Source: Minisyncoccota bacterium (lineage in GTDB: Bacteria > Patescibacteriota > Minisyncoccia > Phycocordibacterales > UBA1006). Taken from it: DNA of 64,000 nt. The translations under genes and the position numbers were made by a program. Location: contig JAIPIY010000001.1 in the NCBI GenBank assembly GCA_021734445.1, positions 31,849 through 95,848 on the forward strand, read 5' to 3'. Below, piece after piece: positions 43,315 to 64,000 of this stretch; the first letter of the stretch is position 1; each line of letters begins with the position of its first letter. The notes under the pieces were generated by a model. That model had not been told where the DNA came from and did not search any database. It saw nothing but the letters and a program-made list of their open reading frames with translations.

Positions 43315-43348
43315 ATGACTATAGTATAGCATGTTTTTTTTAAAAAGA

Positions 43349-44689
43349 TTACAGAATTTTATGAATCCAATCTTGTGCTTGTTCTTTTGTTGGAGCTTCG
43401 GCAAAAAACCGAACAATAGGTTCTGTGTTTGATGCCCTAACATGCAACCAACCGTTGTCAAAATTCACCTTGATACCATCAGTTTCATCTATAGAGAATT
43501 CTGAAAATATTGTTTTCACTTTTTCAAGATACATTTCAACTTCCTGTCGTGAAGAAACTTCTATTTTGTCTTTTACAATTTCATATTTGGGAATTTCAGC
43601 AACCAATTCGGATAACGTTTTTCCTGTTACCGCAAGCATTTCTAAAATTAATGCAATACCCACATAAGAATCCCGAACATATCCAATTTCTGGCCAAATA
43701 ATACCACCATTCCCTTCTCCACCGAACACAGCCTGATTTTCTACCATTGCATTCGCGACATGAATTTCTCCAATTTGCGTTCGCATGATTTTGCAACCAA
43801 ATTCATTTGCGACATCATCAAACATTTTTGATGTCGAAAGATTTGCAACTACTGGACCCCCTTGTTTTTCTGTACGTGTTTGCAAATAATGACGCATTGC
43901 CAATACTAATGTATATTCTTCCCCAATGGGATTTCCCTTCTCGTCAACAATGGCCAACCTGTCCGCATCAGGATCCTGGGCAAAACCAACCTGTGCACCA
44001 GTTTCGCGAACCTTTTGACCCAATACATCTAAAAATTCTGGCAACGGTTCTGGGTTTCGTTCAAATTCTCCCTCTATTTTTTCATGCAGATATATTGCGT
44101 CAATACCCAATTGCGCCATCATGTATGCATCCGCGTCAATCCCCGCCCCATTTCCCATATCTATAACAGTTGTTAATTTTGCATTTTTTATTACATCCAC
44201 CTGAACATGTTTCAAAATCTTATCAATATGATTTTTACCAGCGTCATCTTTTTTTACAACAGAGCCAGGTGTAGTATCCAACAAAGGATTCTCGCCAGAT
44301 TCATATTGTTTGATAATCTGATTCATAACAGATGGGTCTAAAAATAATCCAAGAGGGGTAAAAAACTTTAATCCATTCCAGGGTGCAGGATTATGACTGG
44401 CGGTGATCATAATACCAGCATCAGCGGATTCTGTGCGAACAGTAAATGCTAATGTAGGAGTTGCGGTGATCCCACAATGAATCACCGTGCAACCATATTC
44501 CCGCAATACACGTATTACAATTTCAGAAATCTCATTACGGCTTTTACGTGTATCAGTACCCAATATTACCTTTTTTGGTTTTACCACATCTAAAAATATT
44601 TTTATGATCTGTTCTGTGTTTTCAGGCAATAATGATTTACCCCAAATACCTCGAATACCTGAAATACCCAGCTTTAATGTGTTTTGCAT
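43349..44689 (-). CDS. Phosphohexomutase (phosphoglucosamine/phosphomannomutase)
   Basis: Active-site ITASHNPAPWNGLKF (phospho-Ser loop), metal-binding DPDADR, sugar-binding GEEYT-like loop. 446 aa. Confidence 0.85.
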   Translation of the reverse strand: MQNTLKLGISGIRGIWGKSLLPENTEQIIKIFLDVVKPKKVILGTDTRKSRNEISEIVIRVLREYGCTVIHCGITATPTLAFTVRTESADAGIMITASHNPAPWNGLKFFTPLGLFLDPSVMNQIIKQYESGENPLLDTTPGSVVKKDDAGKNHIDKILKHVQVDVIKNAKLTTVIDMGNGAGIDADAYMMAQLGIDAIYLHEKIEGEFERNPEPLPEFLDVLGQKVRETGAQVGFAQDPDADRLAIVDEKGNPIGEEYTLVLAMRHYLQTRTEKQGGPVVANLSTSKMFDDVANEFGCKIMRTQIGEIHVANAMVENQAVFGGEGNGGIIWPEIGYVRDSYVGIALILEMLAVTGKTLSELVAEIPKYEIVKDKIEVSSRQEVEMYLEKVKTIFSEFSIDETDGIKVNFDNGWLHVRASNTEPIVRFFAEAPTKEQAQDWIHKIL

Positions 44690-48116: not shown

Positions 48117-48650
48117 TTAAATTACCAATCCAGATAATAACGATCCAACACCATAAGCAACCAAAGCAGCAAAAGAACCGACAAATAATGTCTCAAATAT
48201 TGATGCAATAACACCATGTCCTGATATTTTACTTTTCAATAGACCTAATACAGCCAAAGTTAATGCAGTACATACCGATGCCATGGTAAAACTATCAAAT
48301 GCCAAACCTGGGAACCATCGTGCGACCAAAAAAACGATCAATGGCATAAACCCAAAGAAACAAAACGATAAAAACGTCGCCATACCATTTTTCAAAGGAA
48401 TCATAAAATGGGTTCTATCTTCTTTTGTTTCACCTGAAGCGCGTTCATAGTCTTCTTCTGCCCGTGAGGATAAATAATCCCCAGAACCCATAGAAACACC
48501 GTCGGCCAACAGATTTGCCAATCCAAGGACAATAATCAACCCTGCAGGGGCTCCTGCACCCACCGCACTGGCAATAACTGCAAATGTAGTAATAATTCCA
48601 TCAAGACCGCCATAGACGATGCTTTTAATATATTTTCCCAACATAGACAA
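48117..48650 (-). CDS. VIT1/CCC1-family iron/manganese transporter
   Basis: [19 protein letters not shown] and multiple TM helices. 177 aa. Confidence 0.6.
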
Positions 48651-48667
48651 AAAATTTAAGATAATAA

Positions 48668-51600
48668 TTATTTTGATTCAGTTTCAAACGCTGTATCAAT
48701 GATCCCCTTTGTAACAGAAAACGGCTCAGAAGTAAATACAGGAGTATATGATTCATCTGCATTTTTTGCTTCGATGGTAATATAATAGTTTCCATTTGCT
48801 ATCAAACAATAATATCTTCCTCTTTCATCAATAATTACGTGCTTGATTTCTTTTTGCAGTTTTGCAGAAAATACACGAATAATTCCAAATGACAATGGAA
48901 CACCACGATGCGTAACCGTTCCATGCGGATGTGGTTTTAATAACGTAACACGAACAAAAAAGATGAGAATATATGCGACAAATACAATAATATTTAATGT
49001 TGACGGTAATACAAACAATGTCCATGTTGCAATTCCAAAACCAATCCAAAAGAATAGGCTGGCTATTTTAACCAATATGGCTTCATGTTTCACATCAAAA
49101 CTCATGACACCCATTTCTTTTTTCGCAAATTCATTCCAATTAAATTTCAATGGATCCATGGGAATATTGTGTTTGATTACTTGCCCTTCTTCGGTGATGA
49201 TTATCTGTCCTCCAAAATACAGATTGTCATATACTGCGTCTTTTGTAGTATTTGCCAGTTTTTGTGATGGGAATTGATAATCTGTTTTGTGAATCACAAG
49301 GGTATAGGTTCCTGGTTTCACCAAAAATCCATACCGACCATCCAAATCAGTAATAGAAGTTGCTACTTCGTTACCGTTTACATCCATCAACATCACATAT
49401 GCTGGATCAAGAGGTTGTTTGGTTACTGCATCATATACAACCCCCCATTTTTCTACTTTTTTCTTGAGACCAAGACCCGACAGTAGGAAATTCCACAATC
49501 GCATAGGTACCGTAGATAACTGTGGTAACAATGCCATGCCTGCGGTTGCAATACCGGCAACACTGGCCAAGATACCTAATGTGGTCATTGTTTTACCAGT
49601 AGTGCTTTGCACAAAATCAGTTACAGAAGCAACTATTTCTTCAATGAAATCAGTGAATCCTGATGATGAGCCATCTGACCCCTGATTATCCGTAGTTGAT
49701 GATAAGGTATCTTCATTATCATCAAAAGGAAAATCTTCAAATTCCTCTTCAGTATCTTCCATATCTTCTTCATCTATGGGCTCATCTTCGTCTACCGGGT
49801 CTTCGGTTGGTGATTCTGGGGTTGGAGTATTTGGTGAATCAGTAGGCTCTCCTGTTGTTGGTGGCTCACCGGTAGATGTAGTTGTTGGAACAATAATAGC
49901 CGAACCTCCAGAAGAAGATGTGCTATCTGTATTTGAATCTTCTTCCTCATCTTCTGGCTCTACTGCTTGAGTAATAGCAAATGATGAAAAAGAGGTGGCA
50001 TTAAAAATACATCGATTTTTACTATCAATAGTACACTGAGTTAACGCAGACCAAGAGCTTGATTCTGGGGATTTGTGAAATACTGTATATGTTTCTCCTA
50101 TGATAATTCCGGGTATATTTTCAAGCTGAATTTCAACAGACTGAGAAGCCTGTAAATTACTGTTTGGTAATCCAAAAGAAAAACTACGCAGAACTTCTTG
50201 ATTATCAATACCGGGTAGTGTAGTAAGGCCCAAATCATCTATTAACGTCAGGGCTTCAAAATTTGTTTTACCTAAATATCTAAATTCAGTCCCTGCATCA
50301 ATCGTAATTCGATCATTAATAGAAATTGAATCAAAGACAATAGCATTATTAAACAATGCGCGTATACCATTTGTTCCTTCGAATCTCTCTCCCCAACCCT
50401 CATTCAGGGGTTCATATATTCCTGATCTATACAAAGACCAAACAAGATCATCTCCAGAAACAGTGTAAGAATTAGTTGCATCAAGCCAAGAAATTTGAGA
50501 ATTATCAACAGCATTAGGGTTCATATACCCATATCCATATCCATACGTGAATTCATTCCCAGGAGCAGAAGATCCACCAGATGTATCATATTTTGAAACT
50601 TCTAATTTCCATCCAGCAGAAGGGGCCGTATCTATATGAAGCACATGCGGAACATCTTCAGATAATACAAAATCCAACCCATACATGCTCGTAAAAGAGT
50701 CTCCTAATAAATCCATTCGAAACCAAGCACTACCATCTACAAGCCTTTCAACTGATGTATTATAATTCAATGGATTACCATCATCCGAATATGCCACATA
50801 CAATACTCCATCCGAATCAGCTTCCATTTTAATATATTGAGGAGCATGACTTGAAAAACCTTGTGCGCCGACAAAAACACCTCCACCAGAAGAAACATCT
50901 TTTACAGAAACATGCCCGCCTCCATATGCATAGTCCTGATATGCAATATACAAACTATCATCGACAGATACCATATCAAAAGAACCCGATATAGTTGTAT
51001 ACAATGGATGTAATAGAATTGATTCCCACTCTAATGCCAAAGTTTTCACATCAATACGATACAAAGAACCATCATAATATTTATAAGCAACATAGAGATC
51101 ATCATTATCATCAATAGAAAAACTCAATACTGACATAGCCCCGGTAGCAACAACCTCTGTTGTTGGTCCTTCTACATTTTCCCAATCAGGTCCATTGTCA
51201 TATTTTAAAACACGCAGAGTTCCCGTATCATTAATAGCAACATGAACAACGTCCTGTGAATCCAGAGCGATTGCATGATCATACATAGTAGCAAGAGTCA
51301 TAATAGGACCAGCACCAATCACTTGCCAAGAACCACCAACCAATTTAATCACCGTGGGCCCAGTAGTTCCCTGGAATAAAACATAGGGCACATCCTGAGA
51401 ATCCAAAGCAATCTTTGGTCGGGAACCCGTAAATCCCGTTTCCTGAAATGTATTCCATGACCCCTCTGTGTATCCAACAACTTTTATGGCACCTGAAAAA
51501 TTATCCACATACGCCACAGCAATTTTATCATCTGAACCTCTTGCCATGGAAAACCCTTGTGCCAGACCAACCGATGTAGTAGGAAAAATATTTTCTGAAA

Positions 51601-51838
51601 TATCAACCCATACTGGATTTGAAACCATTCTATATCCCGCTAACTGTCCCAAATCCCAACCATATCCGTATCCATAACCATATCCATAGCCATATCCCCA
51701 ACCAACAGACCCTGTTTGCCGTGCAAACTGAGCAAAAGCAACACCCGAACTGGCAATCAATCCAATAATCAGAATAGCAATGAAACTTTGTTTTTTTGTA
51801 ACGAAAAAATTGTGTATTTTTTTTATGTGCTGGATCAT
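48668..51838 (-). CDS. Giant (1056 aa) surface protein: N-terminal GY-repeat module, beta-propeller-like repeats, acidic linker, TM segments, C-terminal carboxypeptidase-regulatory-like domain
   Basis: Signal peptide then [28 protein letters not shown]; a second GYGYGY block; repeated ...LYVAY/LYIAY blade-like motifs; D/E/T/S-rich linker; hydrophobic helices; C-terminal [39 protein letters not shown]. Confidence 0.6.
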
Positions 51839-51894
51839 AATGATTTTTTTATAGTAATAGCTTGCGTCCTATAGTATACTATACACACAAAAAT

Positions 51895-53376
51895 ATGCAT
51901 AGAGTATCTTCTTTTCTACAACAACATAGTGTGACCATTATTTTATTTGGTATTCTTATCTTTGGAGGATATATCCGACTACACAATCTTGGTGAACCAT
52001 CGCTATGGATTGACGAAGGTTATTCCATCAATGCTGCACAACAGATTTTAAAACACGATGTACCATTGTTGGAATCTGGTCAGATGTATACCAACCAACC
52101 CCTGGCATCATATATTGTTGCCGGGTCAATAAAGATTTTTGGCTTTGATCCTTATTCCCCATGGAGCGCGCGATTACCCTTTGCATTATTTGGAATATTC
52201 AATATTCTTATGGTTTTTTTGTTAACCAAGAGATTATTTGATGACCAATGGATTGCGTTAGGGGCTGCATTTTTTACTGCCTTTTTCCCATGGGAAATTG
52301 CATGGGCCAGACAAGCCCGAGGATACAGCATGTTGCAATTCTTTCTCTTGCTTTCTTTTGATCATGTAATTGGATTTATTCAAGAAAGAAAAACCTATCA
52401 TGCACTATTAGCCAGCATTTCTTTTCTATTTGCTTATTTCAGTCATAATCTCGCTATTGCTTTTTTACCGGGATTATTTTTGGTTCTTGGGCTATGGATG
52501 TTATTGGGCATTCAAAAAATATCTTGGAGAAAATCTTGGCCATTTTTATTATTATCCATTGCCGCAATAGCAGTCGGGCAATCGTGGTTGCAAAATCTTG
52601 ACATTATTAATTATATAGAATTTTATAATCGATTTATTATCGAAAATATGCCATGGATATTTGGATTTGGATTCATAGGATTTATTTTGGCGATTTTTCA
52701 AAAAAGATATATCGTATCAGGTATTCTTTTATTAGGAACCACCACTATTGCCTATGTTATTATTGCGTCATATGGAGTAACATTACAATATCGATATCTT
52801 GTGCCCCTGATCCCCTTTTTAGGAATTGGATGTATTTATTTTTTATATGATATTTTTCATAAAATAATCAGTGCGACAAAAAGGTATTCATTACATACTA
52901 TTGTTTCCCCTATTGTGTGTATTATTTTTTGTATCTTACTGGTTATAACAAATCAATCTGTATTTCACCCAACATCGCAACTAGATACCGGTTCCCCACA
53001 GCCAGATTTTAAACATGCCTACGAATATATTAAAGAAAATAAAAATCCTTATGACGTAGTTGTCTCTCCTTATGCACATTTAACAAATATCTATTTAGGT
53101 TATCCTGAAACACTATTACCCATATCATTAACTGGACGAACACAAGAATTTAATCTCACCATAACAAAAGAAAATACTGATTATTATACAAATGCCCCTA
53201 TTGTACAACAAGATGAATTTTTAAATTTCATACATAACAATAATGGATATATTATTCTAGACAGCATGGCAATTTCAAGAATTCCAGAAATAATGCAGAC
53301 AATTCAGTCACAAAAACTGCAATTAGTATTTTTGAAATATCAAAATACGCTAGGAATTTGGGTTTTTAAATTTTAA
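51895..53376 (+). CDS. GT39/ArnT-like (PMT_2 family) polyprenyl-phosphate-sugar-dependent glycosyltransferase
   Basis: Multi-TM. SLWIDEGYSINAAQ, FGFDPYSPWSARLPFALFG, FPWEIAWARQARGYSMLQFFLL. Start taken at ATG 51895 (the track starts at TTG 51862). A paralog lies at 62901. Confidence 0.7.
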   Translation: MHRVSSFLQQHSVTIILFGILIFGGYIRLHNLGEPSLWIDEGYSINAAQQILKHDVPLLESGQMYTNQPLASYIVAGSIKIFGFDPYSPWSARLPFALFGIFNILMVFLLTKRLFDDQWIALGAAFFTAFFPWEIAWARQARGYSMLQFFLLLSFDHVIGFIQERKTYHALLASISFLFAYFSHNLAIAFLPGLFLVLGLWMLLGIQKISWRKSWPFLLLSIAAIAVGQSWLQNLDIINYIEFYNRFIIENMPWIFGFGFIGFILAIFQKRYIVSGILLLGTTTIAYVIIASYGVTLQYRYLVPLIPFLGIGCIYFLYDIFHKIISATKRYSLHTIVSPIVCIIFCILLVITNQSVFHPTSQLDTGSPQPDFKHAYEYIKENKNPYDVVVSPYAHLTNIYLGYPETLLPISLTGRTQEFNLTITKENTDYYTNAPIVQQDEFLNFIHNNNGYIILDSMAISRIPEIMQTIQSQKLQLVFLKYQNTLGIWVFKF

Positions 53377-53641
53377 CTTTTTGTAAAATAACATAAAACT
53401 CCAAAGCATTACGAACTGTTGGATATATGTGAACAATTTTTAATGATTCTAAAAAGATACCCGGGGTTAATTTCCAACAGTGAATATTGAAACGCAATTA
53501 AATATCATAAAATGCGATAATATTTTTACCCTATTTCTTGTAATATTCTTTTTCATTATATCTTTAGTGATCTTTTATAATTTCGCACTGATTAAAATCT
53601 TGTAGGTTTGGTTTATTTTTTTATAGATTAATTATTTATTT

Positions 53642-54853
53642 TTATAGACCTAATATCGATTCGACGAAGAGAAAAGAATCTTCAAATGTCTTTTCCCAAC
53701 TGGTTTCCATGTTATTTGCACGGTAGTTTTCATATCTTCCTTCGGGGTTTTGTGCCAACATAACTGCTTGTTTGAAATATATATCCACAAAATCATCCCG
53801 TATAATATCTCCACATATAATATTTTTTGAATAATGTGCATTCGTCCTCTTTTGATAGGTATTTGTTAATGCAACACCACCACTGGATGCGATATCCATG
53901 GGCATATATCCAGGATGTGGTGTCCATAATAATGAAAACCCAAGATCCACTTTTTTTAAAAAGTCTGAATATTCTTCCCATGTCATTTTACCTAATACAT
54001 GCGGAATAACACCATTAAAAAAATGAGGTGGATCAATATTCTCTCCGGCAAAATAAATTTTCCATTTTTCTTTTTCTAAAACTTTTTTTTGAAAAGCTTC
54101 TTCAATCAATTTTAAACCTGTATAGTATAAATTGCGAGGCGTATTCGGGCGTGCATAAAAGAGCAATACATAGGTATCCTTCGGAAGAAATGCATTCTTA
54201 TTCGGTTGATATAAATGTGAAGTAAATGCGGGTTCGAAATAAATACTATTATGTTTGATATTTTCAAAAGATGAGTTTTGAAAATATTCAAATAAAATCC
54301 TAGAATTTACAATATATTTTACTCTTGGATTCGCTAATACTTTTTCACACCAATATGCATCATCGCCGTTATTATAGAATACAACTTCTGATTCTTGAAT
54401 AATGTGAAAAAAGTTTTCCATAAGACACACCTTATTAACAAGATAGGAAGACCACCAAGATGTTGCAACAAATATATCTTTTTCAGATATTTCCAAGGCA
54501 GTATTATATGATTCTGCAGTATAAGTACTAAAAAACTCTACCTGTATAGGCTTTTCTATGTTCATAGATTTTAAAAAGTTTTCATATGCAACTGGTTGTG
54601 CTTCCTCATCTCGTATAATAATTCGTAATACATAACCCGTACGTAGCGCAAAAAGAGTTGCAAATATAATCACTGTTGCTACCCCTCCAAAAACATACTT
54701 ATCTTGTAGTGAATCCAGCACAAGATTGATTCGATAAGAATCACGAGACACCCTCTTTGTTTTCCAAACAGGCAAATATGCTAATTTTGTATACATAAGA
54801 TGTTGAACGGATTGCATATTATTTTTGATCAAAAAAATCTTTTGTATAATCAA
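53642..54853 (-). CDS. Hypothetical protein, possibly a glycosyltransferase (N-terminal TM anchor)
   Basis: 403-aa ORF with one N-terminal TM helix and a soluble domain; no clear family motif. Its location in the glycan locus is the only functional hint. Confidence 0.35.
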   Translation of the reverse strand: MIIQKIFLIKNNMQSVQHLMYTKLAYLPVWKTKRVSRDSYRINLVLDSLQDKYVFGGVATVIIFATLFALRTGYVLRIIIRDEEAQPVAYENFLKSMNIEKPIQVEFFSTYTAESYNTALEISEKDIFVATSWWSSYLVNKVCLMENFFHIIQESEVVFYNNGDDAYWCEKVLANPRVKYIVNSRILFEYFQNSSFENIKHNSIYFEPAFTSHLYQPNKNAFLPKDTYVLLFYARPNTPRNLYYTGLKLIEEAFQKKVLEKEKWKIYFAGENIDPPHFFNGVIPHVLGKMTWEEYSDFLKKVDLGFSLLWTPHPGYMPMDIASSGGVALTNTYQKRTNAHYSKNIICGDIIRDDFVDIYFKQAVMLAQNPEGRYENYRANNMETSWEKTFEDSFLFVESILGL

Positions 54854-57800
54854 TATTTAAATCAGTGTTTACCCCAACTTTTTTCTTTTCACCCTGACCA
54901 ATCCACATCTCGCATTCCAGGCGGTACGATTCAAACTCCCACCCACGCTTATCTTTTCTATCATGCAATTGTAATTCTCTTTTTTGTATAGAAGGTAATG
55001 TTCTTATATATACACTTTGAGCCCACCAAAAATTACCTGAAAAATGAGAGTGTGTATGCACAGAAAATGGTTGTCGTATAGAATTATCAACAGGATGTTC
55101 TTTCCATCCACAACCAGCAATATCACAACCTTTGTTTAAAAAAGATATACACTTTTTATATTCTTTTATATTTTTTTCCACAAGCCGTTCTCTCCATTTT
55201 ATTTTTACAGAATCATTTGATTGTGACACCCCTTTTGTATGACAATAAAAAATATACGCATCTTGTGTATGTGAAAATTCTTGCAAATAGGTTAACAATG
55301 GATATTCTACTTCGGTAATATCGGGACTAGTATATACACATTTCATTTTTTTATATGTTTTTAATAAAAGCAAAAAAGAATCGGTTGGATCCCCAAGCAG
55401 TGCATAGTATATTTCTTCGCATTCATCATATAATCCTGAATCTTGCATGGATTGTATCATCGTATGCACAATTTCAGCATAATTATATATACAACAAATA
55501 TGAAAAAATACATATATTTTTTTTGTTTTTTGGATACTGTAATTATCTGGGATCAAAGTAATAAAATCATAGCTATATCGATTTTGAGGATATTCATATA
55601 TCACCCTTCCTGCGTCATATACTAATTTACCCACATATCTCTCTAGCCCATGAATAACAGTTCCATTCTCAACATATCCCATAGGTTGCTCTTTTTCTAA
55701 AAAACTAATAAACTTTTGAGAAATTATTTTTTCAAGAATATCATAGCGAACCCAAAAAATACTTCCAGATATCCAGGAATATTGAGTGTGTTGTTCATCT
55801 GTATGGGCATAGATTTTTTCAATAGAAGGTTCATATACTTCATCTGAAGAAAAAATATTTCCCAATGCACCAACATGACTACCCCCTATCATACCTGCAT
55901 CTGAATATTCTAAGTTATGCAAAATTGCATTGACTGTTTTTTCATCATGCAACACATGATCCATAAGATCATAAAACCATTTCGCACCCATAGATGGATC
56001 ATACAAAGATTTTTTAGTATGCACTTTCAAGATAAATTGAGTATCTTTTGGGACATGAGCTAGCGCCTTTACAAAAGGTAATATATCTAATCCTTGATTT
56101 TCATATGTAAAAATCTTTACATCAGGGTATGCATTTTTAACTTTTTTTATAAAGCTTTTTGAATAATGACCCTGTGTCAAGGTGATAATAATATGAAATG
56201 GCTCTTCTATATATTGCAACCGTTTATAAATTTCTTCCCACATATCTTCATAAAAAATATGCGCAATAACCGTAATACGAGGATGCTTCGTGTCTTTCTG
56301 TGTTACAAGCGGGGTATACAAGAATTTTGTTTTGCGACGCAAGAAATATTTTTCAAAAAATTTCTTTGGATTATATATTGCCCAAATTATCTGTGGGTAG
56401 GTTGGCATAGATCTCCAAACATGCTTTTTGAGAAATTTTAAAGGGTGTAAAATAACCCAACGAATTTGTGGATAAGTAGGAAACCCTTGCCACACGTTTT
56501 TTTTCAAAAAACGAAGAGGGTGATGTAATGCCCACCGTATTCGTATATACAGATTTTTCATTTTTGCCAAAAGAGAATTCGATTGTATATGCATAAGAAG
56601 ATTTTCTTTTTGTTGCAATACCTGCTGTGTTGTTTGCAAAGCAAGTTGGATAGACTGAATATGATCTTGCAATGATGCAATATATCGGTCTTTTTCAATA
56701 ACACCTTGAGAAAGAAAATCTTTTTCTAACATAGTAACATCTATTTGTTTTTCTTTTTCCTGAACAAGGTTCTGCAATTCCAATTCTTTTTGTTGTTTTT
56801 TCTCTAGCAATTGAATCAAGGCAAATGTTTTTTCACGATAGTTTTTTTCTATTTTTTCTAATCTTGCAATTACAGCTTGTTGTCTATCATCATGAGAATG
56901 TTGATCTATATGCATCTTTTCAAGAATATCCTGCTTTGACGTAGAAATATTTTTTTGAATAGCTTCAATGTCTTTATTTTGTTGTTCTAAGTAGGTGCAT
57001 TGATTTTCCAAAACCTGTATCTGCTGTAGATAGGTTGCCTTCTCTTTGTCAAAATCTTTTTCTAACCAGTCGTGTAACATGGATGCATCACGCAACATCA
57101 TGGCTGAAAACCCTATTTCTGACATATCATAATCAGAAACCATATACCCAGACATGTCTAAATTTCGATATAACCGAATATCAAATAATTTAACTACAAA
57201 TTCTTTTTTTTCTTGATATTGTTGTGCTAAAAAACCAAAAGGATCGGCATCAACGAATTTCTCTACTTCTCTTTGAAAATTCGCGTGTAATAGATTATAC
57301 GAAACGTAGATATTTTTTTTATTATGGATACATTCCTGTATTGAAGAATAGGTTCGAGACCACAGAGAAAAGAAATTTTTTACTGCTGTAATATTTTTTC
57401 TTTTCTGTAGTGAGTATATAATTTCTATTGGATTACGGTAGGTAATAATATAACAAGTATTCTCTGGTAAATACTCTTGCCATAATGGCAACGTAATTGG
57501 CATACGAGGGTCTTTTATACCCCATACAGCTTTTTGTGATTGCATGTCATGAATAAATGATTCAATACGATCACGAATAGAATTTAATCGTACATCTTTT
57601 TGCCAACCATATTGCAATATGGGAATAGTATCCCAGGTACCACCAAATACTGACAAAATATCATCATTTATGGACATGACCTTGTTGTTTTCAAAATACC
57701 CATATGGATTTTCAACTGTTTGCGACAGCATGTCTTCTTCTCTGCCAAGAAAAACACCTAATTTAGACAATATACCAGAAACAAGGGATGTCCCACTGCG

Positions 57801-57878
57801 ATGCATCCCTAATACAATATAACAGGTATGTTTTTGATTCATTGTGCACAATATATAGGTTTTTCTGTTGAAATACAA
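54819..57878 (-). CDS. WbbB-like multidomain glycan assembly protein: Stf0-type sulfotransferase, ~160-aa coiled coil, tandem repeats, RgpF-like glycosyltransferase, second GT-like domain
   Basis: aa 18-260: sulfotransferase motifs MHRSGTS (5'-PSB) and TYRNPIEIIYSLQKR (3'-PB). aa ~270-435: heptad-rich Q/E/K coiled coil. aa 440-516: three tandem copies of R(W)xxxHPLxFLKKxVW...PTYPQI. aa ~530-770: AHIFYEDMWEEI...KVHTKKS, RgpF (rhamnan synthesis F)-like. aa ~785-1019: a second nucleotide-sugar-transferase-like region (...FYCHTKGVS...GNFWWAQ). Confidence 0.6.
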   Translation of the reverse strand: MYFNRKTYILCTMNQKHTCYIVLGMHRSGTSLVSGILSKLGVFLGREEDMLSQTVENPYGYFENNKVMSINDDILSVFGGTWDTIPILQYGWQKDVRLNSIRDRIESFIHDMQSQKAVWGIKDPRMPITLPLWQEYLPENTCYIITYRNPIEIIYSLQKRKNITAVKNFFSLWSRTYSSIQECIHNKKNIYVSYNLLHANFQREVEKFVDADPFGFLAQQYQEKKEFVVKLFDIRLYRNLDMSGYMVSDYDMSEIGFSAMMLRDASMLHDWLEKDFDKEKATYLQQIQVLENQCTYLEQQNKDIEAIQKNISTSKQDILEKMHIDQHSHDDRQQAVIARLEKIEKNYREKTFALIQLLEKKQQKELELQNLVQEKEKQIDVTMLEKDFLSQGVIEKDRYIASLQDHIQSIQLALQTTQQVLQQKENLLMHIQSNSLLAKMKNLYIRIRWALHHPLRFLKKNVWQGFPTYPQIRWVILHPLKFLKKHVWRSMPTYPQIIWAIYNPKKFFEKYFLRRKTKFLYTPLVTQKDTKHPRITVIAHIFYEDMWEEIYKRLQYIEEPFHIIITLTQGHYSKSFIKKVKNAYPDVKIFTYENQGLDILPFVKALAHVPKDTQFILKVHTKKSLYDPSMGAKWFYDLMDHVLHDEKTVNAILHNLEYSDAGMIGGSHVGALGNIFSSDEVYEPSIEKIYAHTDEQHTQYSWISGSIFWVRYDILEKIISQKFISFLEKEQPMGYVENGTVIHGLERYVGKLVYDAGRVIYEYPQNRYSYDFITLIPDNYSIQKTKKIYVFFHICCIYNYAEIVHTMIQSMQDSGLYDECEEIYYALLGDPTDSFLLLLKTYKKMKCVYTSPDITEVEYPLLTYLQEFSHTQDAYIFYCHTKGVSQSNDSVKIKWRERLVEKNIKEYKKCISFLNKGCDIAGCGWKEHPVDNSIRQPFSVHTHSHFSGNFWWAQSVYIRTLPSIQKRELQLHDRKDKRGWEFESYRLECEMWIGQGEKKKVGVNTDLNIDYTKDFFDQK

Positions 57879-57881
57879 GAA

Positions 57882-58535
57882 CTAGAGTAAATCTCTATAT
57901 AATTCTACATCTTGTGTATTATAAGACCGTATTTTTTCTTCGTTGTGCAGACCTTTTATGGGAGTAATATTTTCTGATATACCATTCCAATGAAATCCTA
58001 GATTTTGTACATCTTTATGAAATTGTTCTGTGCGACAAATAATAAGATCTGGAAAAGAAATATCAATAGACCGAGATAGCATGTTTTGAGATCTTATATA
58101 ATGATCATCTGTTATTTCATTAATGCCCCAGTGAACCTTATAGTGATCTAACTCTGACATTACTCGATCAATAGGATCGCGGACAAAAGCGAGTGTGGTA
58201 ATGTGAAAAAAATGAGAATCAAGTTTTCTTAGCATGTGCCATGTGATCTCTTTTTCAAAATGACCATGAATCGCATAAATATTATTTTCTTTAATATACG
58301 CAATAACATCCTCTATCAAGATTCCTTTAGATTCATGTATCATGTCATGAATACCTTGTAGGGTGTGGTGTATAACAAAACGACTTGCATCATTTTCACA
58401 TGGATATACATACAAGAATGAATCACCAAATGAATCTGCTAAAATTTTCCCAAATGTAGTTCCACCTGTTTTAGGAATATGCACAGAAAGTAAAAATGTT
58501 TCTTTTGTATCTATTTTTTCTTTTAAATTTTTCAT
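57882..58535 (-). CDS. Stand-alone sulfotransferase
   Basis: 5'-PSB HIPKTGGTTF and 3'-PB FVRDPIDRVMSE motifs. 217 aa. Confidence 0.7.
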   Translation of the reverse strand: MKNLKEKIDTKETFLLSVHIPKTGGTTFGKILADSFGDSFLYVYPCENDASRFVIHHTLQGIHDMIHESKGILIEDVIAYIKENNIYAIHGHFEKEITWHMLRKLDSHFFHITTLAFVRDPIDRVMSELDHYKVHWGINEITDDHYIRSQNMLSRSIDISFPDLIICRTEQFHKDVQNLGFHWNGISENITPIKGLHNEEKIRSYNTQDVELYRDLL

Positions 58536-58537
58536 AT

Positions 58538-59761
58538 TTATTCAGACCAACGATGTGGCATGTGAACCAAACCATTTCGTTTATCGCCTGGAATTACCTT
58601 GAAATATGCTTGATGTTCCGACCCCAGATACATGTCATAAAATACCTGTTCGCCATTTTCTTTTTCAGAAAATAAACTAGTATTAATAACAAATTCACCT
58701 TTATGAAACAAAGCTTCGGGGAATGTTAACACTATCCTATTTTTTCCTTTTTTCCATGGATGTTGATATGTTTCATACAACGTATTATTGCCACACACCC
58801 ACGCATCTGTTTTTTTATCCAATATTCCCAAACCAACATGCAACTGTTGTGAAATATCTTTGATATCATAATTAATTTCAATACGTATTGTTTCTCTAGA
58901 TTCAAAAACTGATGTTTCTATGTTTCTATCATTATACAACCGAACATCAACGATTGAGTTTTTCTTTTTTTTTGTATCTGAAACAGTTTCATCCTGCTGT
59001 TCCTGCATTAATAATTTTTGATATGCAAAAAGAGATTTTGCGGCGGTATCTATGATATGCATCCGACCATGATCCAAAATTAATACCCTATCTGCAAAAT
59101 CTCGTACAGACTGTTCTCCGTGGGAAACTAATATAATAGTTTTTCCCATACGTTTCAAACGACGCAATTCCGCAAGACATTTTTCTTGAAATGGTGCATC
59201 CCCAACTGCCAACACTTCATCCATTAACAATACCTCTTTGTTAGCATGAATGGCCACAGAAAAAGCTAACCGCATATACATCCCCGAAGAATAGTTTTTT
59301 ACCTTTTGATCAATAAATCTTTCTAATTCAGAAAAATTAATAATGGCATCGATTTTTTCATCAATTTCTTTTTTAGACAAACCCAATACGGTTGCATTTA
59401 AATAAATATTATCACGTCCTGACAATTCACCATGAAACCCAATACCCAACTCTAGAAAAGGAGATATTCCACCTGATACGATTACTGAACCTGAATCCTG
59501 TTCATACACACCAGCAAGAATCTTTAACAGAGTTGATTTTCCGCTACCATTTCGCCCCATAATAGCAAAAAATTCACCTTGATAGACATCAAAAGAAATA
59601 TCGTCCAATGCATGCAATACATCATGGGTTCTTTTTTTCATCATGTGTACAAACATGCCCCGCAACGTTTGTATCTTTTCATGAGGAATAATAAATTTTT
59701 TATTCAGATTACGTACCGACACAGCAACGGTGGTATTTTTTTGTTCTGTACTTTTTTTCAT
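58538..59761 (-). CDS. wzt: Polysaccharide ABC exporter ATP-binding protein (Wzt/TagH type) with C-terminal glycan-binding domain
   Basis: Walker A GRNGSGKSTLLKILAG, signature LSGG-like, Walker B LLMDEVLAVGD. An extra ~150-aa C-terminal beta-rich domain, as in Wzt. Confidence 0.8.
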   Translation of the reverse strand: MKKSTEQKNTTVAVSVRNLNKKFIIPHEKIQTLRGMFVHMMKKRTHDVLHALDDISFDVYQGEFFAIMGRNGSGKSTLLKILAGVYEQDSGSVIVSGGISPFLELGIGFHGELSGRDNIYLNATVLGLSKKEIDEKIDAIINFSELERFIDQKVKNYSSGMYMRLAFSVAIHANKEVLLMDEVLAVGDAPFQEKCLAELRRLKRMGKTIILVSHGEQSVRDFADRVLILDHGRMHIIDTAAKSLFAYQKLLMQEQQDETVSDTKKKKNSIVDVRLYNDRNIETSVFESRETIRIEINYDIKDISQQLHVGLGILDKKTDAWVCGNNTLYETYQHPWKKGKNRIVLTFPEALFHKGEFVINTSLFSEKENGEQVFYDMYLGSEHQAYFKVIPGDKRNGLVHMPHRWSE

Positions 59762-60537
59762 ATATATTCTGCAATACGTCGTGATGTTTTTTTAAACAAA
59801 AGAATGCTGAGAACCAGAAATCCTATACAAGCCAATACCATAATAATAACATGATGTGTTTGTGCAAATAAATCAGAAATGAGTCCCTGTTTAGAAAAAT
59901 GAATAATAAATGCAAGAGGACTGACAAGTAACCATCGGTGCAAATATTCTGGTAACATCACCAGTGGATACACGATAGGTGATGCATACATTAATATCGA
60001 TACAAGAACCTCCCATATCATAGAAACATCCCGAAACCGAACAAATAAAGGGGCTAAAATAAATGAACAGGCAAGAATGAAAATATACAATAAAATAATA
60101 GAACCCAAAAAGAATATTATTCCACCTACGCTTGGCATTTTTCCATAATAGATAAAAAATCCAACTACCACGACCAAATTAGTAATAAATACTAACAAAG
60201 AATGTAATGTTGACGATACAACCAATGTCCATCGGGGCAAAGCAATTTTGGTTACCAATTGTCCTTTTGATAACAATGCAGACATTCCCGATGATGTTCC
60301 CTCTGCAAAAAAATTAAACATTAAAAATGCGGTTAACAATTCCAGGGTATAAAAAGGAGTACCCATGTTTTTAAAATTAAAAATAGAACTGAAAACAAAA
60401 TTTAATACCAAAAAAAACAACAGCGGTTTCAATAATGCCCAAATATACCCCAGCCAAGAATTTTGATATCGCAAAAGAAAATCCGTCTTTGCAAGACGTA
60501 TAATTAATTCTTTATAAGTAAACAATGAAGATAACAT
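59758..60537 (-). CDS. wzm: ABC-2 family polysaccharide exporter permease (Wzm)
   Basis: 6 TM helices, ABC-2 topology. Start overlaps the wzt stop by 4 nt. Confidence 0.75.
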   Translation of the reverse strand: MLSSLFTYKELIIRLAKTDFLLRYQNSWLGYIWALLKPLLFFLVLNFVFSSIFNFKNMGTPFYTLELLTAFLMFNFFAEGTSSGMSALLSKGQLVTKIALPRWTLVVSSTLHSLLVFITNLVVVVGFFIYYGKMPSVGGIIFFLGSIILLYIFILACSFILAPLFVRFRDVSMIWEVLVSILMYASPIVYPLVMLPEYLHRWLLVSPLAFIIHFSKQGLISDLFAQTHHVIIMVLACIGFLVLSILLFKKTSRRIAEYI

Positions 60538-60543
60538 ATATGA

Positions 60544-61677
60544 TTAACAAAGATACTTTTCCAGTATACCAGAAATTACTGATCGGTGAGTAACGGTAAT
60601 CTCTCCTGTTCTTTCTTTAATGTTCTCTGTCAGAGATACATTTTTCACCATAAGAAGATGTTTCAAAGATTCTCTGCTATATCCAATAGGAAACAAGTCC
60701 TGGGTATACCACATATTCGTATCAGTATTTTGTGTAATAATGGGTACACCATAGATCATTGCATTTACAATCTTACCACTACCCTGCAGAGAATCTTTTT
60801 GCTTTGGATCGATACACACACCGGCAATTGATAACAGTTCAGATAAGGTATTTGCTGATAACGGACTTATGACAGTGTATGCATCTTTAGGGATATCATT
60901 TGGAATGAGTAACATTTTCGCAGGACCACCTGCAATGACCCAAAACACATCTTTATTTTCTCGTATCATATTCCAGACAGCAGATACATTTTTATCAAAT
61001 GAAAACCCTCCTGCATATACAACAATAGGTACATCAGATGGAAGATGATATTTTTGATATATAGTATTTTTGTCATGTGTGTGCAATTCTACAGATGGCA
61101 CATCAGGTAAAAATACCACCCGATCTATACGAAATTCTTGTATATGCGCCATTAATTCTAATGAACTGGTCGTACACAGGGCTGGCAATGTATATATCCA
61201 TGCCTCGATTCGAGATACTATTTTTTTCACTATATTATTATGTATATTGAGTTCTTTTACCAACCCTCCATGAAAATCACCAATGATTTCAATATTTTTC
61301 CAAAAAAATATTCTTTTACACAGCCAACCAATACATACACCCTCGTAAAGATGTGCATAGATACAAATATTTTTTTGCTGTGATTGTATAATATTTTTAA
61401 TCAACGTATTTAATAACAAAACATCAAATAAAAAACGTGACCAATGAAAACCCATTGGCAGTGTATTGATCCAAAACAAAGGATTCCAACATCTGACAAC
61501 AGAAATATGTTTCGGTGTTTCCCCAAAAGGATACGTGTATACCGTAGCATTATATCCCAAATCCAAAAGTGTTTTTACAAAAGCATACACACGAAAAGAA
61601 GTCCCTCGAGATGAAAGAAATACCGTCGGGGCAACCACAAATATAGAGGTATTTTTTTTCATCTCTTTTTGCTTCAT
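60544..61677 (-). CDS. GT-B fold glycosyltransferase (GT4-like)
   Basis: Two Rossmann-like halves; IVVYAGGFSFDKN...IAGGP; C-terminal IYGVPIITQNTD. 377 aa. Confidence 0.5.
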   Translation of the reverse strand: MKQKEMKKNTSIFVVAPTVFLSSRGTSFRVYAFVKTLLDLGYNATVYTYPFGETPKHISVVRCWNPLFWINTLPMGFHWSRFLFDVLLLNTLIKNIIQSQQKNICIYAHLYEGVCIGWLCKRIFFWKNIEIIGDFHGGLVKELNIHNNIVKKIVSRIEAWIYTLPALCTTSSLELMAHIQEFRIDRVVFLPDVPSVELHTHDKNTIYQKYHLPSDVPIVVYAGGFSFDKNVSAVWNMIRENKDVFWVIAGGPAKMLLIPNDIPKDAYTVISPLSANTLSELLSIAGVCIDPKQKDSLQGSGKIVNAMIYGVPIITQNTDTNMWYTQDLFPIGYSRESLKHLLMVKNVSLTENIKERTGEITVTHRSVISGILEKYLC

Positions 61678-61751
61678 ATATATAATATGAATGATTATAT
61701 ACTATATTTTTAAATATATCTCATCTATACCAAAATTCACCATAGGTAAAA

Positions 61752-61782
61752 AATAAAAGCAACAGAGGTTGCTTTTATTTTT
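61752..61782. terminator. Bidirectional terminator
   Basis: AAAAGCAAC-AGAG-GTTGCTTTTATTTTT. Confidence 0.5.
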
Positions 61783-61804
61783 AGTACTATCTGTGATGTA
61801 GATA

Positions 61805-62860
61805 TTATCTACCCAATAATGCTTTTATAACTGCAAGAGTTTTTGGACCAACGATACCATCTACAGTAAGTCCATGTTTTTCTTGGAATTTTTTTACTGC
61901 TGCATCTGTCAAGGGACCAAAATATCTTGTTTCGTTTCCAGGTGATCCGGCACCAACTACTGCAAGTTGTGTCGCAGGGTCACTGTTAAGGAATTGTTGA
62001 AGTTTCAGAACATCATCTCCTAACATGGAAATACGTAATGTTCTTTCAAGTATTTCTGATAGATTCATATCACCCCCCAGAGATTGTAATTGAGCTTGAA
62101 GAATTGCAACCATATGGAGCAATAATCCACGTAGTTGATTTTGCAATGTTGGAACATCAGATGATAATAGTATTGGATTAATAGCTGAACTACTTCCTCC
62201 TGAAGAACCACCTCCGCCACCAGAACTACATGCAGAAGTTGATTTAGTTGTAGCGTTATTATTCCATATATTTCCACCAGCATCTTCAGATAATACACGA
62301 ACATCATATTCAGTACCACAAGTAAGACCGGTAATAGTTACCGTATATTCATCAGCTGTTTCTAATTCAGGATCAGTAGATGCATCATAGTCACCTTCAC
62401 CATATTCTACAGAGTTTGTTGCAGTATAGGTTGTTGTATAGGTAACAGCAAGAGTTGTTTTTGTTGTATCAATAGAATTAATCACTGCAGATCCATCGTC
62501 TCCAAAGAATCCATAGTCACTGTAATTATTTACACCAGATTTAAAACTGTAACCATATCCATATCCATCACCATTATCATAACCATAACCATAACCATAA
62601 CCAAACTCCAACAGAGGAAGTGTTGTTCGATAGAACTGTGCATAGGCAACAGCACCGCCGGCAAATGCAAAAATCATACCTAATACAAGCATTTTTTGTA
62701 TTGAAATATTTAGCCCACGTAATGTATTTTTAATATTCATAATCTTTTTCTTTATATTGTTATTAATGGCACTTTGCACAAGATACTTATAGTATAGGCA
62801 ATTTTTGAATATAAAACAAGAAGTTATCCACAGTTTTGCATAAAACAAAATTAACCCCAA
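61805..62860 (-). CDS. Secreted GY-repeat protein with Gly/Ser linker and C-terminal peptidoglycan-binding domain
   Basis: Signal peptide then [35 protein letters not shown]; central beta-rich domain; SSGGGGGSSGGSSS linker; C-terminal PG_binding_1 (TRYFGPLTDAAVKKFQEKHGLTVDGIVGPKTLAVIKAL). Confidence 0.55.
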   Translation of the reverse strand: MGLILFYAKLWITSCFIFKNCLYYKYLVQSAINNNIKKKIMNIKNTLRGLNISIQKMLVLGMIFAFAGGAVAYAQFYRTTLPLLEFGYGYGYGYDNGDGYGYGYSFKSGVNNYSDYGFFGDDGSAVINSIDTTKTTLAVTYTTTYTATNSVEYGEGDYDASTDPELETADEYTVTITGLTCGTEYDVRVLSEDAGGNIWNNNATTKSTSACSSGGGGGSSGGSSSAINPILLSSDVPTLQNQLRGLLLHMVAILQAQLQSLGGDMNLSEILERTLRISMLGDDVLKLQQFLNSDPATQLAVVGAGSPGNETRYFGPLTDAAVKKFQEKHGLTVDGIVGPKTLAVIKALLGR

Positions 62861-62900
62861 AACTACAATAAATCATAAAAAAGTGTATACTAAAAACGCA

Positions 62901-64000
62901 ATGAGTACACAACACCAATCATGGCATACCTATGTATTTCTCATCCTCTTTTTCTTGATATTGGTCGGAGGGGCTTTTTTACGTTTTTACAAATTAGGAC
63001 ATCAGTCATTATGGATTGACGAAGGGTATTCCATCAACGCCAGTCAGGCAGTACTAGACCATGGATACCCGACATTGGATTCCGGTGAAAATTATACTGG
63101 TCATATATTCTCCACCTACATCATTGCGGGTTCTATGCAATTATTTGGTTTTGAACCCTATTCCCCATGGAGCGCCCGATTACCTTCGGTGTTATTTGGC
63201 ATCGGCGTTATATTCATGACCTACATGTTTGCCTACCGATTAACAGAAAACCGCTGGGTCGCATTGGGGGCAATGTTATTTGTCGCATTTTTGCCCTGGG
63301 AAATTGCCTGGTCACGTCAAGCCCGCGGATATGTGATGTTACAATTTTTCCTTCTTTTGACATTTGATAAACTGATATACATTATCAAAAGCATTCATAC
63401 AGATGATTTTAAAAATAAATTACAGCATCTGGGATTATTATTATTGTATGCCATTTTAGGTTTTCTCAGTCACGGAATCGGTATCGCATTTATTATACCC
63501 ATTGTCATACTATTGGGAATAGTAGTATATACACAGAGAAAAAATAGCTCACCTTGGTTATGGATGACAACCGCGATTATGGGTGCTTATGTTTTGTATC
63601 GTGGAATTAAATATGTATTTAATGTATCTCTTGAAAATTATTTTTCTTCTTATGCGCATTTTCTGCTACAACAGTATCCACTAGAAACAGTGTTTACCAT
63701 TGTTGGTATTATCAGCATGTTTTTCTTTGCCCAGAAAAAAATCAACGCCGTATGTATTACCGCAGGCATTGGTATTCCTGTTATTGTTTTGTCTTTGTAT
63801 ACATCAATACAGATGCGCTATTTAGTACCCTTGATACCCTTTTTAGGTAGTATGATTTCTTATGGAATATATAATACGATTGATCTATCTCAAAAAACAT
63901 TCTTTCCTGATTTTAATAGAAAACATATAATTGGATGCATCAGCATGGTTGGGATTATTCTATTATTGGTATTACAGCCTGCATCATTTATCCCCCAATC
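62901..64000 (+). CDS. GT39/ArnT-like glycosyltransferase paralog (3' end outside window)
   Basis: MSTQHQSWHTYVFLILFFLILVGGAFLRFYKLGHQSLWIDEGYSINASQ...FGFEPYSPWSARLPSVLFG...LPWEIAWSRQARGYVMLQFFLL: a clear paralog of 51895..53376. The frame is open to the window end and it is absent from the ORF track. Confidence 0.7.
   Translation, partial: MSTQHQSWHTYVFLILFFLILVGGAFLRFYKLGHQSLWIDEGYSINASQAVLDHGYPTLDSGENYTGHIFSTYIIAGSMQLFGFEPYSPWSARLPSVLFGIGVIFMTYMFAYRLTENRWVALGAMLFVAFLPWEIAWSRQARGYVMLQFFLLLTFDKLIYIIKSIHTDDFKNKLQHLGLLLLYAILGFLSHGIGIAFIIPIVILLGIVVYTQRKNSSPWLWMTTAIMGAYVLYRGIKYVFNVSLENYFSSYAHFLLQQYPLETVFTIVGIISMFFFAQKKINAVCITAGIGIPVIVLSLYTSIQMRYLVPLIPFLGSMISYGIYNTIDLSQKTFFPDFNRKHIIGCISMVGIILLLVLQPASFIPQ

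Follow-up and report, generated by a model that had tools for sequence, protein, structure and literature searches.

Herein, a 64,000-nucleotide stretch of contig JAIPIY010000001.1 from a Minisyncoccota bacterium, called the window below, was analyzed. The window encodes two head-to-head gene pairs, and in each pair a membrane glycosyltransferase (GT) of the GT-C type is divergently transcribed from an exported protein that carries glycine-tyrosine (GY) runs close to its N-terminus. In pair 1, the protein GY1 (48668-51838, minus strand, 1056 amino acids (aa)) adjoins the enzyme GT-C1 (51895..53376, plus strand). In pair 2, the protein GY2 (61805..62740, minus strand, 311 aa from an ATG at 62740) adjoins the enzyme GT-C2 (62901..64000, plus strand). 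An earlier, sequence-only reading of this DNA had claimed two such pairs, and both are present. The pairing was found to recur across a survey of 134 non-redundant loci, in which the sole feature common to the partner proteins is an N-terminal [FYW]-G-Y-G tag; the passengers behind the tag and the linkers vary freely. We lean, by a small margin over even chances, towards an enzyme that glycosylates its tagged neighbor at or through this tag, as gene order and sequence motifs suggest.

Relatives of the enzyme were collected at 78 loci of species-representative genomes, mostly Patescibacteria with about a dozen archaea (1.18 Mb of flanking DNA), and at 56 non-duplicate, independent metagenome loci. 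Loci are cited by L numbers and proteins by P numbers. A protein was counted as tagged when GYG occurred in its first 130 residues and a 15-residue hydrophobic window lay no more than 40 residues before it. In the genome loci, the tag was found in 46/143 immediate neighbors versus 13/885 other open reading frames (ORFs) (Fisher p = 3e-31), and 5 of these 13 belong to the cluster of the enzyme, at a distance of two or three genes. Similarly, in the metagenome loci the tag was carried by 22/95 immediate neighbors versus 0/195 other ORFs (p = 4e-12). Among the bacterial loci whose flanks reach 1.5 kb or more on each side, 36 of 47 are tag-positive. A tagged protein is also present in L040 and L073, although outside the strict neighbor rule, and degenerate tags occur in L029 and L066. 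ORFs with at least three GY units adjoin the enzyme in 24 loci and are almost absent elsewhere in the 1.18 Mb, apart from two additional paralogues arranged in tandem in L012 and an L070 ORF at a distance of 777 bp from the enzyme. The neighbor in many of the other loci carries a related tag, 'AFGYGGGGG', straight after its N-terminal helix. Within the window itself, GY1 and GY2 are the only ORFs with an N-terminal GY run. When the 79-aa N-terminal tag region of GY1 was compared with a set of 5.8 billion proteins, three short matches were returned, the query being short and of low complexity. Thus relatives of the enzyme consistently adjoin GY- or GYG-tagged proteins, the point on which the sequence-only reading had staked its case. 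Comparative genomics, through conserved adjacency and separate orthologous pairs, gives good support to its view of each enzyme acting on its own partner.

The enzyme and the tag have diversified together. A neighbor-joining tree of the enzymes gave separate clades, and each clade has a tag type and a gene order of its own. Clade A, to which the window belongs, has a divergent GY-tagged neighbor. Clade C has a co-directional, downstream small protein with 'xYGYGYGYG', and clade D has a divergent neighbor with 'AFGYGGGGG'.

A further gene was noted in the clade with the 'AFGYGGGGG' tag. The GT-C gene is followed there by one for a conserved protein of about 360 aa without a Pfam or NCBIfam match, for example in L018 (11551-14422, plus strand). 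This protein has one transmembrane (TM) helix followed by 'NFLPFGY(N/D)KTF', so that FGY appears again just outside the membrane. Its gene precedes one for a 600-800-aa multi-TM protein with no family match. The gene of about 360 aa was detected in 17/78 loci by tblastn, and the arrangement is also seen in L022, L024, L029, L030, L034, L035, L040, L047, L052, L057, L066, L071, L073, and L076.

The properties of the tag were determined from 79 non-identical tagged N-termini. The tag takes the form (GY)n with n of at least 2 in 41, GYG plus poly-Gly in 29, and another form in 9. The residue preceding GYG is F, Y, or W in 59/79. The tag starts 1-25 residues after the hydrophobic helix, with a median of 12. 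The tagged proteins range from about 100 to 1543 aa, and their passengers contain PG_binding_1 (frequent), Big_1/invasin, beta-propellers, or no recognizable domain. The GY runs are among the best-conserved segments of the orthologue alignments. The neighbors share only the tag, and this is therefore the pattern of a substrate tag and not of an enzyme subunit. The sequence-only reading had looked to Ser/Thr-rich (S/T-rich) tracts as the determinant; the conserved feature turned out to be the N-terminal [FYW]GYG tag instead. No curated model for the GYG tag was found in NCBIfam.

GT-C1 is 493 aa long when read from its ATG and 504 aa when read from a TTG at 51862, and is identical to P0001. The window end cuts the gene of its paralogue GT-C2, leaving the first 366 of 504 aa (P0013). 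The two enzymes are 42% identical over 318 aa (E 9e-75). The alignment bears out the paralogy and the shared motifs that had been quoted earlier, and by sequence comparison GT-C1 and GT-C2 are old paralogues. GT-C1 matched Pfam PMT_2 (E 2e-10, 41.5 bits, cut-off 26.1), and GT-C2 matched Pfam PMT (PF02366; E 6.7e-6, 26.3 bits, cut-off 22.7). No MIR or PMT_4TMC domain was found in either enzyme by Pfam at E <= 0.01.

In GT-C1, D40-E41 ('SLWIDEG') lies in the first outer loop after the first model helix and is invariant in 31 homologues. R93 and a 'WxxxWxxQxRxY' block are also invariant among these homologues. The DE loop of GT-C1 is followed by a 'WEIAWxRQARGY' motif, and the protein ends in an alpha/beta domain of about 130 aa. 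A profile built from the 31 homologues gave ArnT as the sole solved-structure relative by sequence (5ezm, E 3e-6). The AlphaFold2 model of GT-C1 has a pLDDT of 91. Its best fold matches in Foldseek were STT3/AglB/PglB and ArnT (E ~1e-8, TM-score 0.55-0.6; ArnT, with a TM-score of about 0.6, is 13-14% identical to GT-C1), whereas the match to Pmt1/2 was weaker and partial (E ~1e-4, 246 columns). With its invariant DE loop, confident model, and ArnT/STT3 matches, the enzyme looks like an active GT-C. The GT39 label given in the sequence-only reading agrees with the PMT_2/PMT matches, but the missing MIR and PMT_4TMC domains and the closer ArnT and STT3 folds speak against it. Judged by sequence and model, the enzyme is a distinct GT-C family within the PMT_2 clan and not a bona fide GT39. 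No NCBIfam model matched the enzyme within its cut-off, and Pfam did not assign it to the YfhO type either. Membership of Agl23 (TIGR03663) was rejected, with scores of 28-48 bits far under the 126-bit cut-off. The enzyme family comprises 931 representatives at 50% identity (E <= 1e-30); it is widespread in Patescibacteria and extends to some archaea.

The two partner proteins were compared by translation, Pfam, hydropathy, and composition. GY1 starts with a signal peptide or anchor, followed by a (GY)6 run, a repeat-rich ectodomain, an acidic S/T/P-rich stalk (about aa 600-750), and a TM helix (753-771). Its C-terminal part holds a CarboxypepD_reg domain (799-857) and further TM helices (920-966). 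By these sequence features GY1 is a large membrane protein. The (GY)6 run (51662..51697, minus strand), which is the proposed recognition or acceptor tag, starts 16 aa past the hydrophobic region, and its context is nearly identical in the orthologues of L001, L079, and L080. A second, internal GY run (about aa 432-438; 50528..50545, minus strand) is kept in the L001 orthologue and in three tandem L012 paralogues. A different degree of conservation was seen along the rest of GY1. The C-terminal ~315 aa (48668-49620), with the TM helix, CarboxypepD_reg, two or three TM helices, and a C-terminal domain, are about 95% identical to the L001 orthologue, and the ectodomain is merely about 50-55% identical. 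This suggests, from sequence, a strongly constrained membrane or cytoplasmic function of the C-terminal module, separate from the variable outer part.

GY2 begins with a signal peptide and ends in a PG_binding_1 domain; two GY runs, an FN3-like domain, and a G/S linker lie between them. The two runs, (GY)4 and (GY)3 (62549..62602, minus strand), lie 16 aa past the hydrophobic region and are among the best-conserved columns of the orthologue alignment. The first run has no Ser/Thr within 6 aa. Orthologues of GY2 adjoin GT-C2 orthologues in L159 and L161, and related GY/PG_binding_1 proteins adjoin GT-Cs in L003 and L009. GY1 and GY2 have in common a basic n-region, a hydrophobic helix, 'A(F/Y)AQF', and a GY run about 10 residues later. 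BLASTP between them gave no similarity past an N-terminal stretch of about 55 aa. The shared N-terminal module of the sequence-only reading thus holds for the signal peptide, A(F/Y)AQF, and (GY)n, but for nothing beyond. Its description of the two as paralogous surface proteins fails past the first ~55 residues, where they are non-homologous, and the word 'giant' does not suit the 311-aa GY2. The S-layer-like system that it envisaged was not recovered either: among the nine region proteins searched with Pfam, the partners gave no SLH or S-layer match and the locus gave no Wzy_C O-oligosaccharyltransferase.

Each pair is a conserved unit of its own. Pair 1 is found in L001 with the same flanks (enzyme 69% and partner 66% identical), and also in L079, L080, and L012. 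Pair 2 is found in L159/L160 (enzyme 84% identical) and L161 (51%), with PG_binding_1 proteins bearing the same tag as partners. For locus context, the 84%-identical L159 orthologue P0011 was used in place of GT-C2 (P0013). An explanation by chance, or by a recent local segmental duplication that left two functionally unlinked pairs, would account for two similar arrangements within 15 kb of each other, and a duplication of this kind had been named beforehand as what would undo the claim. However, the enzymes are merely 42% identical, the partners are unrelated outside the tag, and the pairing recurs across the whole survey. Because each pair recurs as a separate orthologous unit and the enzymes have diverged so far, the pairs are not a recent duplication. 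This candidate was rejected, and almost no weight is left to it.

On the donor side, the most consistently linked gene is an ArnC/GtrB-like GT2. A full-length ArnC/GtrB/PgfS-like GT2 was found within 10 kb in 30 of the 47 loci with at least 9 kb downstream, among them L001, where it spans 20470-21456, and the NCBIfam PgfS and ArnC models match the linked GT2 over its full length. Exporters were less frequent. An exporter (Wzx or Wzm) was detectable in 12 of the 47 long-flank loci, and a Wzx-type flippase in about 12, a lower bound given that tblastn is insensitive for Wzx. Wzm/Wzt was found near the enzyme in 3/78 loci (L001, L002, and L005). A locus encoding Wzx, GT2/GT4 enzymes, and an ArnC-like GT2 lies next to the pair in L018, L159, and L161. 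The idea that a Wzm/Wzt-exported polymer is ligated onto the partner therefore does not hold as a general property, although some glycan-assembly locus is often adjacent.

A mechanism can be proposed from the pairing, its conservation, the co-diversification of enzyme clade and tag, the GT-C fold with its invariant DE loop, and the linked GT2. The GtrB/ArnC-like GT2 would charge polyprenyl phosphate with a sugar. The GT-C would then transfer the polyprenyl-P-linked sugar to its GYG-tagged neighbor at the outer membrane surface. The [F/Y/W]-G-Y-G tag, extended to (GY)n or to GYG plus poly-Gly, would mark the substrate encoded next door. The tag is placed a median of 12 residues beyond the N-terminal helix, so that during export a still membrane-embedded signal sequence would hold it near the membrane, where GT-C active sites lie. 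The acceptor would most likely be the tyrosine hydroxyl, because tyrosine is the only hydroxyl residue that is invariant in the tag. The donor would most likely be a polyprenyl-P-sugar from the linked GT2, or alternatively a lipid-linked oligosaccharide or polymer from the adjacent variable locus. Tyrosine is an established O-glycosylation site in S-layer proteins of bacteria (PMC2943079). In streptococci, GtrB/PgtC2 and PgfS/PgfM1 glycosylate extracytoplasmic protein regions, and the pgf cluster encodes its own substrates Cnm, CnaB, and CbpA (doi 10.1101/2024.05.05.592596). The narrower proposal, that [F/Y/W]-G-Y-G is a minimal sequon, located on exported proteins just beyond the membrane, whose tyrosine is O-glycosylated by the GT-C family, is put forward tentatively, as a possibility with chances well short of even.

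Several points weigh against this proposal. The enzyme-substrate relation, the tyrosine acceptor, and the donor identity are inferred from gene neighborhood and motifs. We know of no GT-C enzyme that glycosylates tyrosine, and the Tyr-linked glycans of S-layers have been assigned to predicted Wzy_C-type transferases; the latter is documented in PMC2943079. Some S/T is present within 6 aa of 70/79 tags, and the GYG plus poly-Gly tags are often followed by Ser-rich stretches; given these nearby residues, Ser/Thr acceptors are a possibility. There is no ArnC-like GT2 inside the 64-kb window; such a gene may lie beyond the window end. The N-terminal tag is mostly absent in the archaeal clade, where two members have internal GY runs in their neighbors. 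No tagged neighbor was found in the enzyme sub-clade of L002, L005, L013, L014, L016, and L021. In L002 and L005, the enzyme adjoins an ArnC-like GT2 and has Wzm/Wzt at a distance of a few kb, as is typical where polysaccharides are decorated with side chains.

Details of these untagged groups were recorded as well. In L055 (5190-6539, minus strand) and L078 (5301-6668, minus strand), from ANME-2 and Methanolobus, the GT-C neighbor has GY/GF-rich runs at about aa 117-175; no such neighbor was found in the other Methanosarcinales loci. The enzymes of L013, L014, and L021 have as gene neighbors an ArnC-like GT2 and small secreted proteins in which a PDZ-like 'KAGxRxGMxI' motif occurs, and their acceptor may be a different one.

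Other explanations were weighed against glycosylation of the neighbor by a sugar from the linked GT2. The GT-C might act as an O-oligosaccharyltransferase that moves the lipid-linked glycan of the adjacent variable locus en bloc onto the tagged protein, which was the second option of the sequence-only reading. In the window, that glycan would be the Wzm/Wzt-exported, possibly sulfated, rhamnan-like polymer, giving Tyr-linked glycoproteins like the S-layers of Paenibacillus and Thermoanaerobacter. In line with this, the pair borders a glycan-assembly locus in the window, L001, L018, L159, and L161, and the difference in locus type among close relatives at the same slot, which is Wzm/Wzt for the window as well as L001 and Wzx for L159, fits a relaxed glycan specificity. 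Pfam gave no Wzy_C or priming phosphoglycosyltransferase match among the window-locus genes, the closest folds of the enzyme include STT3/AglB/PglB, the locus has WsaF- and RgpF-like enzymes as in S-layer glycan clusters, and ABC-transporter pathways build Tyr-linked S-layer glycans (PMC2943079). However, the low exporter counts (with the lower bound for Wzx kept in mind), the sequence similarity to ArnT/PMT_2, which use polyprenyl-P-monosaccharide donors, and the linkage to the ArnC/GtrB-like GT2 above all other genes are against it, and en-bloc transfer is considered unlikely. A separate candidate, tyrosine sulfation of the GY runs by the sulfotransferases of the locus, was rejected as a general explanation, because these are limited to the window and its closest relatives and also because one of them is fused to a cytoplasmic RgpF-type glycan enzyme.

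The tag could also be a docking or recognition element only, with the sugar placed on Ser/Thr in nearby disordered regions as in the PMT, PgfM1, and PgtC2 systems. Glycosylation of an S/T-rich partner was the first option of the sequence-only reading. To our knowledge, all characterized O-glycosylating GT-C enzymes target Ser/Thr, GY1 has its acidic S/T/P-rich stalk, and G/S-rich stretches come right after the tag in GY2 and in many GYG plus poly-Gly proteins. The S/T tracts vary in position and presence among the neighbors, however, and 9/79 tags, that of GY2 included, have no S/T within 6 aa. Moreover, the small (GY)n proteins of clade C hold little besides the tag, and internal GY runs are themselves conserved. 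This makes a mere docking role improbable. An acceptor other than protein is rated lower still: the GT-C would decorate a wall-polysaccharide side chain, a lipid, or a teichoic-acid-like polymer, and the GYG proteins would be co-regulated envelope proteins that bind or organize the product through the aromatic-glycine segment and PG_binding_1. Aromatic/Gly repeats are able to bind glycans, PG_binding_1 is frequent in the neighbors, and L002 and L005, which have the enzyme and an ArnC-like GT2 near Wzm/Wzt and no tagged protein, resemble streptococcal rhamnopolysaccharide side-chain systems. But a single GYG with poly-Gly is an unlikely glycan-binding module, the tag type tracks the enzyme clade over deep divergence, and the short, fixed distance from tag to helix fits an acceptor better than a lectin.

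The genes around the pairs are as follows. The housekeeping genes for ribonucleotide reductase, phosphoglucomutase, Mur ligases, and alanine racemase lie upstream of VIT1 (48117-48650, minus strand), which is the ORF directly before GY1. Between the pairs, an ABC-transporter-type glycan locus (53642..61677, minus strand) was assigned from Pfam and translations and is syntenic in L001. It encodes a WsaF-like GT (53642-54853; WsaF_C 5e-36, WsaF_N 1e-14), a 1019-aa RgpF/sulfotransferase fusion (54819-57878; RgpF 2e-25), a Sulfotransfer_2 protein (57882-58535) with an above-threshold Pfam match, Wzt (58538-59761, an ATPase by sequence), Wzm (59758-60537, an ABC-2 permease by sequence), and a GT4 (60544-61677), the locus gene nearest GY2; all are on the minus strand. 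In the fusion protein, a sulfotransferase-like region at the N-terminus is followed by a long Q/E/K-rich part that resembles a coiled coil, by RgpF, and by one more domain at the C-terminus; its L001 counterpart is a 1611-aa ORF that appears to absorb the WsaF-like gene too. A glycan locus is thus present between the pairs, as had been described, but the word 'sulfated' depends on the one Sulfotransfer_2 match and a sub-threshold Sulfotransfer_3 match (E 0.001) in the fusion protein.

Close relatives share the left flank (NTP transferase, phosphoglucomutase, large and small ribonucleotide reductase subunits, and VIT1), and the contents to the right of it differ. The compared spans are 48117-61677 in the window, 8160-21515 in L159, and 6253-21456 in L001. 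The window and L001 have pair 1 and the Wzm/Wzt locus there, and L001 is without pair 2. The slot directly behind VIT1, which contains pair 1 in the window, contains pair 2 in L159, and a Wzx-type glycan locus follows there. The adjacent glycan locus is the variable part, and the slot looks like a hot spot for surface-glycan replacement. GT-C2 orthologues are followed by a second, larger PMT_2-type GT-C of 690-783 aa (L159, 11525-13597, plus strand; L161, 3039-5390, plus strand), and such a gene probably lies just past the window end at 64000.

The divergent intergenic region of pair 1 (56 bp, 51839..51894) contains overlapping TATAGTATA elements on both strands. This element occurs in 10 copies in the window versus 0.7 expected from shuffles, at 487, 4061, 18079, 26425, 43320, 51870/51875, 54121, 61698, and 62788, mostly intergenic and ahead of genes. 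It is probably a -10-type promoter element of the organism. Its presence in both divergent intergenic regions had made it a candidate for a pair-specific regulatory motif, and this was rejected in favor of a general promoter-like element of the contig. Elsewhere in the window, a 1049-aa ORF (40312-43461, minus strand) has a Peptidase_S74 (endosialidase intramolecular chaperone) domain at aa 788-841. It represents a tailspike-like, self-cleaving fiber module in a cellular contig of the Candidate Phyla Radiation (CPR), and L159 holds an 846-aa protein at the corresponding position.

A large part of bacterial diversity belongs to the Patescibacteria (CPR), which are mostly host-attached and uncultured, with an envelope biochemistry that is almost unknown. 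The conserved enzyme and tag module would open the decoration of their surface and wall-binding proteins to testing, and the predicted substrates could be read from sequence as the proteins carrying the tag. If the proposal is true, it would describe, as far as known, a first GT-C glycosyltransferase acting on tyrosine and a first protein-glycosylation sequon defined for the CPR. A tyrosine acceptor would be an addition to the Asn, Ser/Thr, Trp, and lipid acceptors of GT-C chemistry and would supply a very short tag for glyco-engineering. The different glycan loci beside the pair at the same slot in close relatives suggest diversifying surface glycans, which would be relevant to host and phage interactions.

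Several known systems resemble the proposed one in part. The protein O-mannosyltransferases (PMT, CAZy GT39) with Ppm1/Dpm1 share the GT-C fold, the Asp-Glu in the first outer loop, and the Pfam PMT/PMT_2 matches, together with, as proposed here, a polyprenyl-P-sugar donor and action on proteins during export. They target Ser/Thr, whereas the present enzyme is without MIR and PMT_4TMC, is about 500 aa long, ends in a different alpha/beta domain, and matches the Pmt1/2 fold less well than ArnT or STT3. ArnT (GT83, the undecaprenyl-P-L-Ara4N:lipid A transferase) is similar in sequence (5ezm) and fold and works with an ArnC-type GT2. Its acceptor is the lipid A phosphate, unlike the tagged protein that is the conserved neighbor here. 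No arn operon context (ArnA, B, D, E, F) was found in the window locus or in L018, the ArnC-like GT2 alone being linked, and Patescibacteria are not known to make lipopolysaccharide. In the TfpW/PilA system of the group IV pilins of Pseudomonas aeruginosa, a GT-C using a polyprenyl-P-monosaccharide donor is encoded beside the glycosylated protein; the acceptors are Ser/Thr of a type IV pilin, and the enzyme family and substrate signal differ.

The slg clusters of Geobacillus stearothermophilus and Paenibacillus alvei resemble the window locus in Wzm/Wzt export and in a WsaF-type rhamnosyltransferase. Their glycan is attached to protein by an O-linkage, in P. alvei through tyrosine (PMC2943079), which is the residue proposed here. 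In contrast, their transferase is a predicted Wzy_C-type O-oligosaccharyltransferase (WsaB/WsfB), with none in the window locus; the partners here are without an S-layer/SLH signature, and the Wzm/Wzt linkage is limited to the closest relatives of the window. The streptococcal GtrB/PgtC2 system and the Streptococcus mutans Pgf system (PgfS-PgfM1-PgfE-PgfM2) are also similar. There, and by proposal here, a GtrB/ArnC-type GT2 makes the polyprenyl-P-sugar, a GT-C with an outward catalytic loop transfers the sugar to extracytoplasmic protein regions (doi 10.1101/2024.05.05.592596), and putative substrate genes adjoin the GT-C, the substrate role being judged here from conserved adjacency. The GT-C is of the YfhO type there and of the PMT_2 type here, where the hosts are Patescibacteria, and the substrate mark is a poly-Ser/Thr disordered region there and an N-terminal [FYW]GYG/(GY)n tag here; such a GT2 is not inside the window. 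No paper linking GY/GYG tags to GT-C enzymes or to Patescibacteria was found in the literature, and no curated family for the pairing. By analogy, the most economical reading would be a GtrB plus GT-C protein glycosylation system with an adjacent substrate, new in its GT-C family, its phylum, and its substrate signal.

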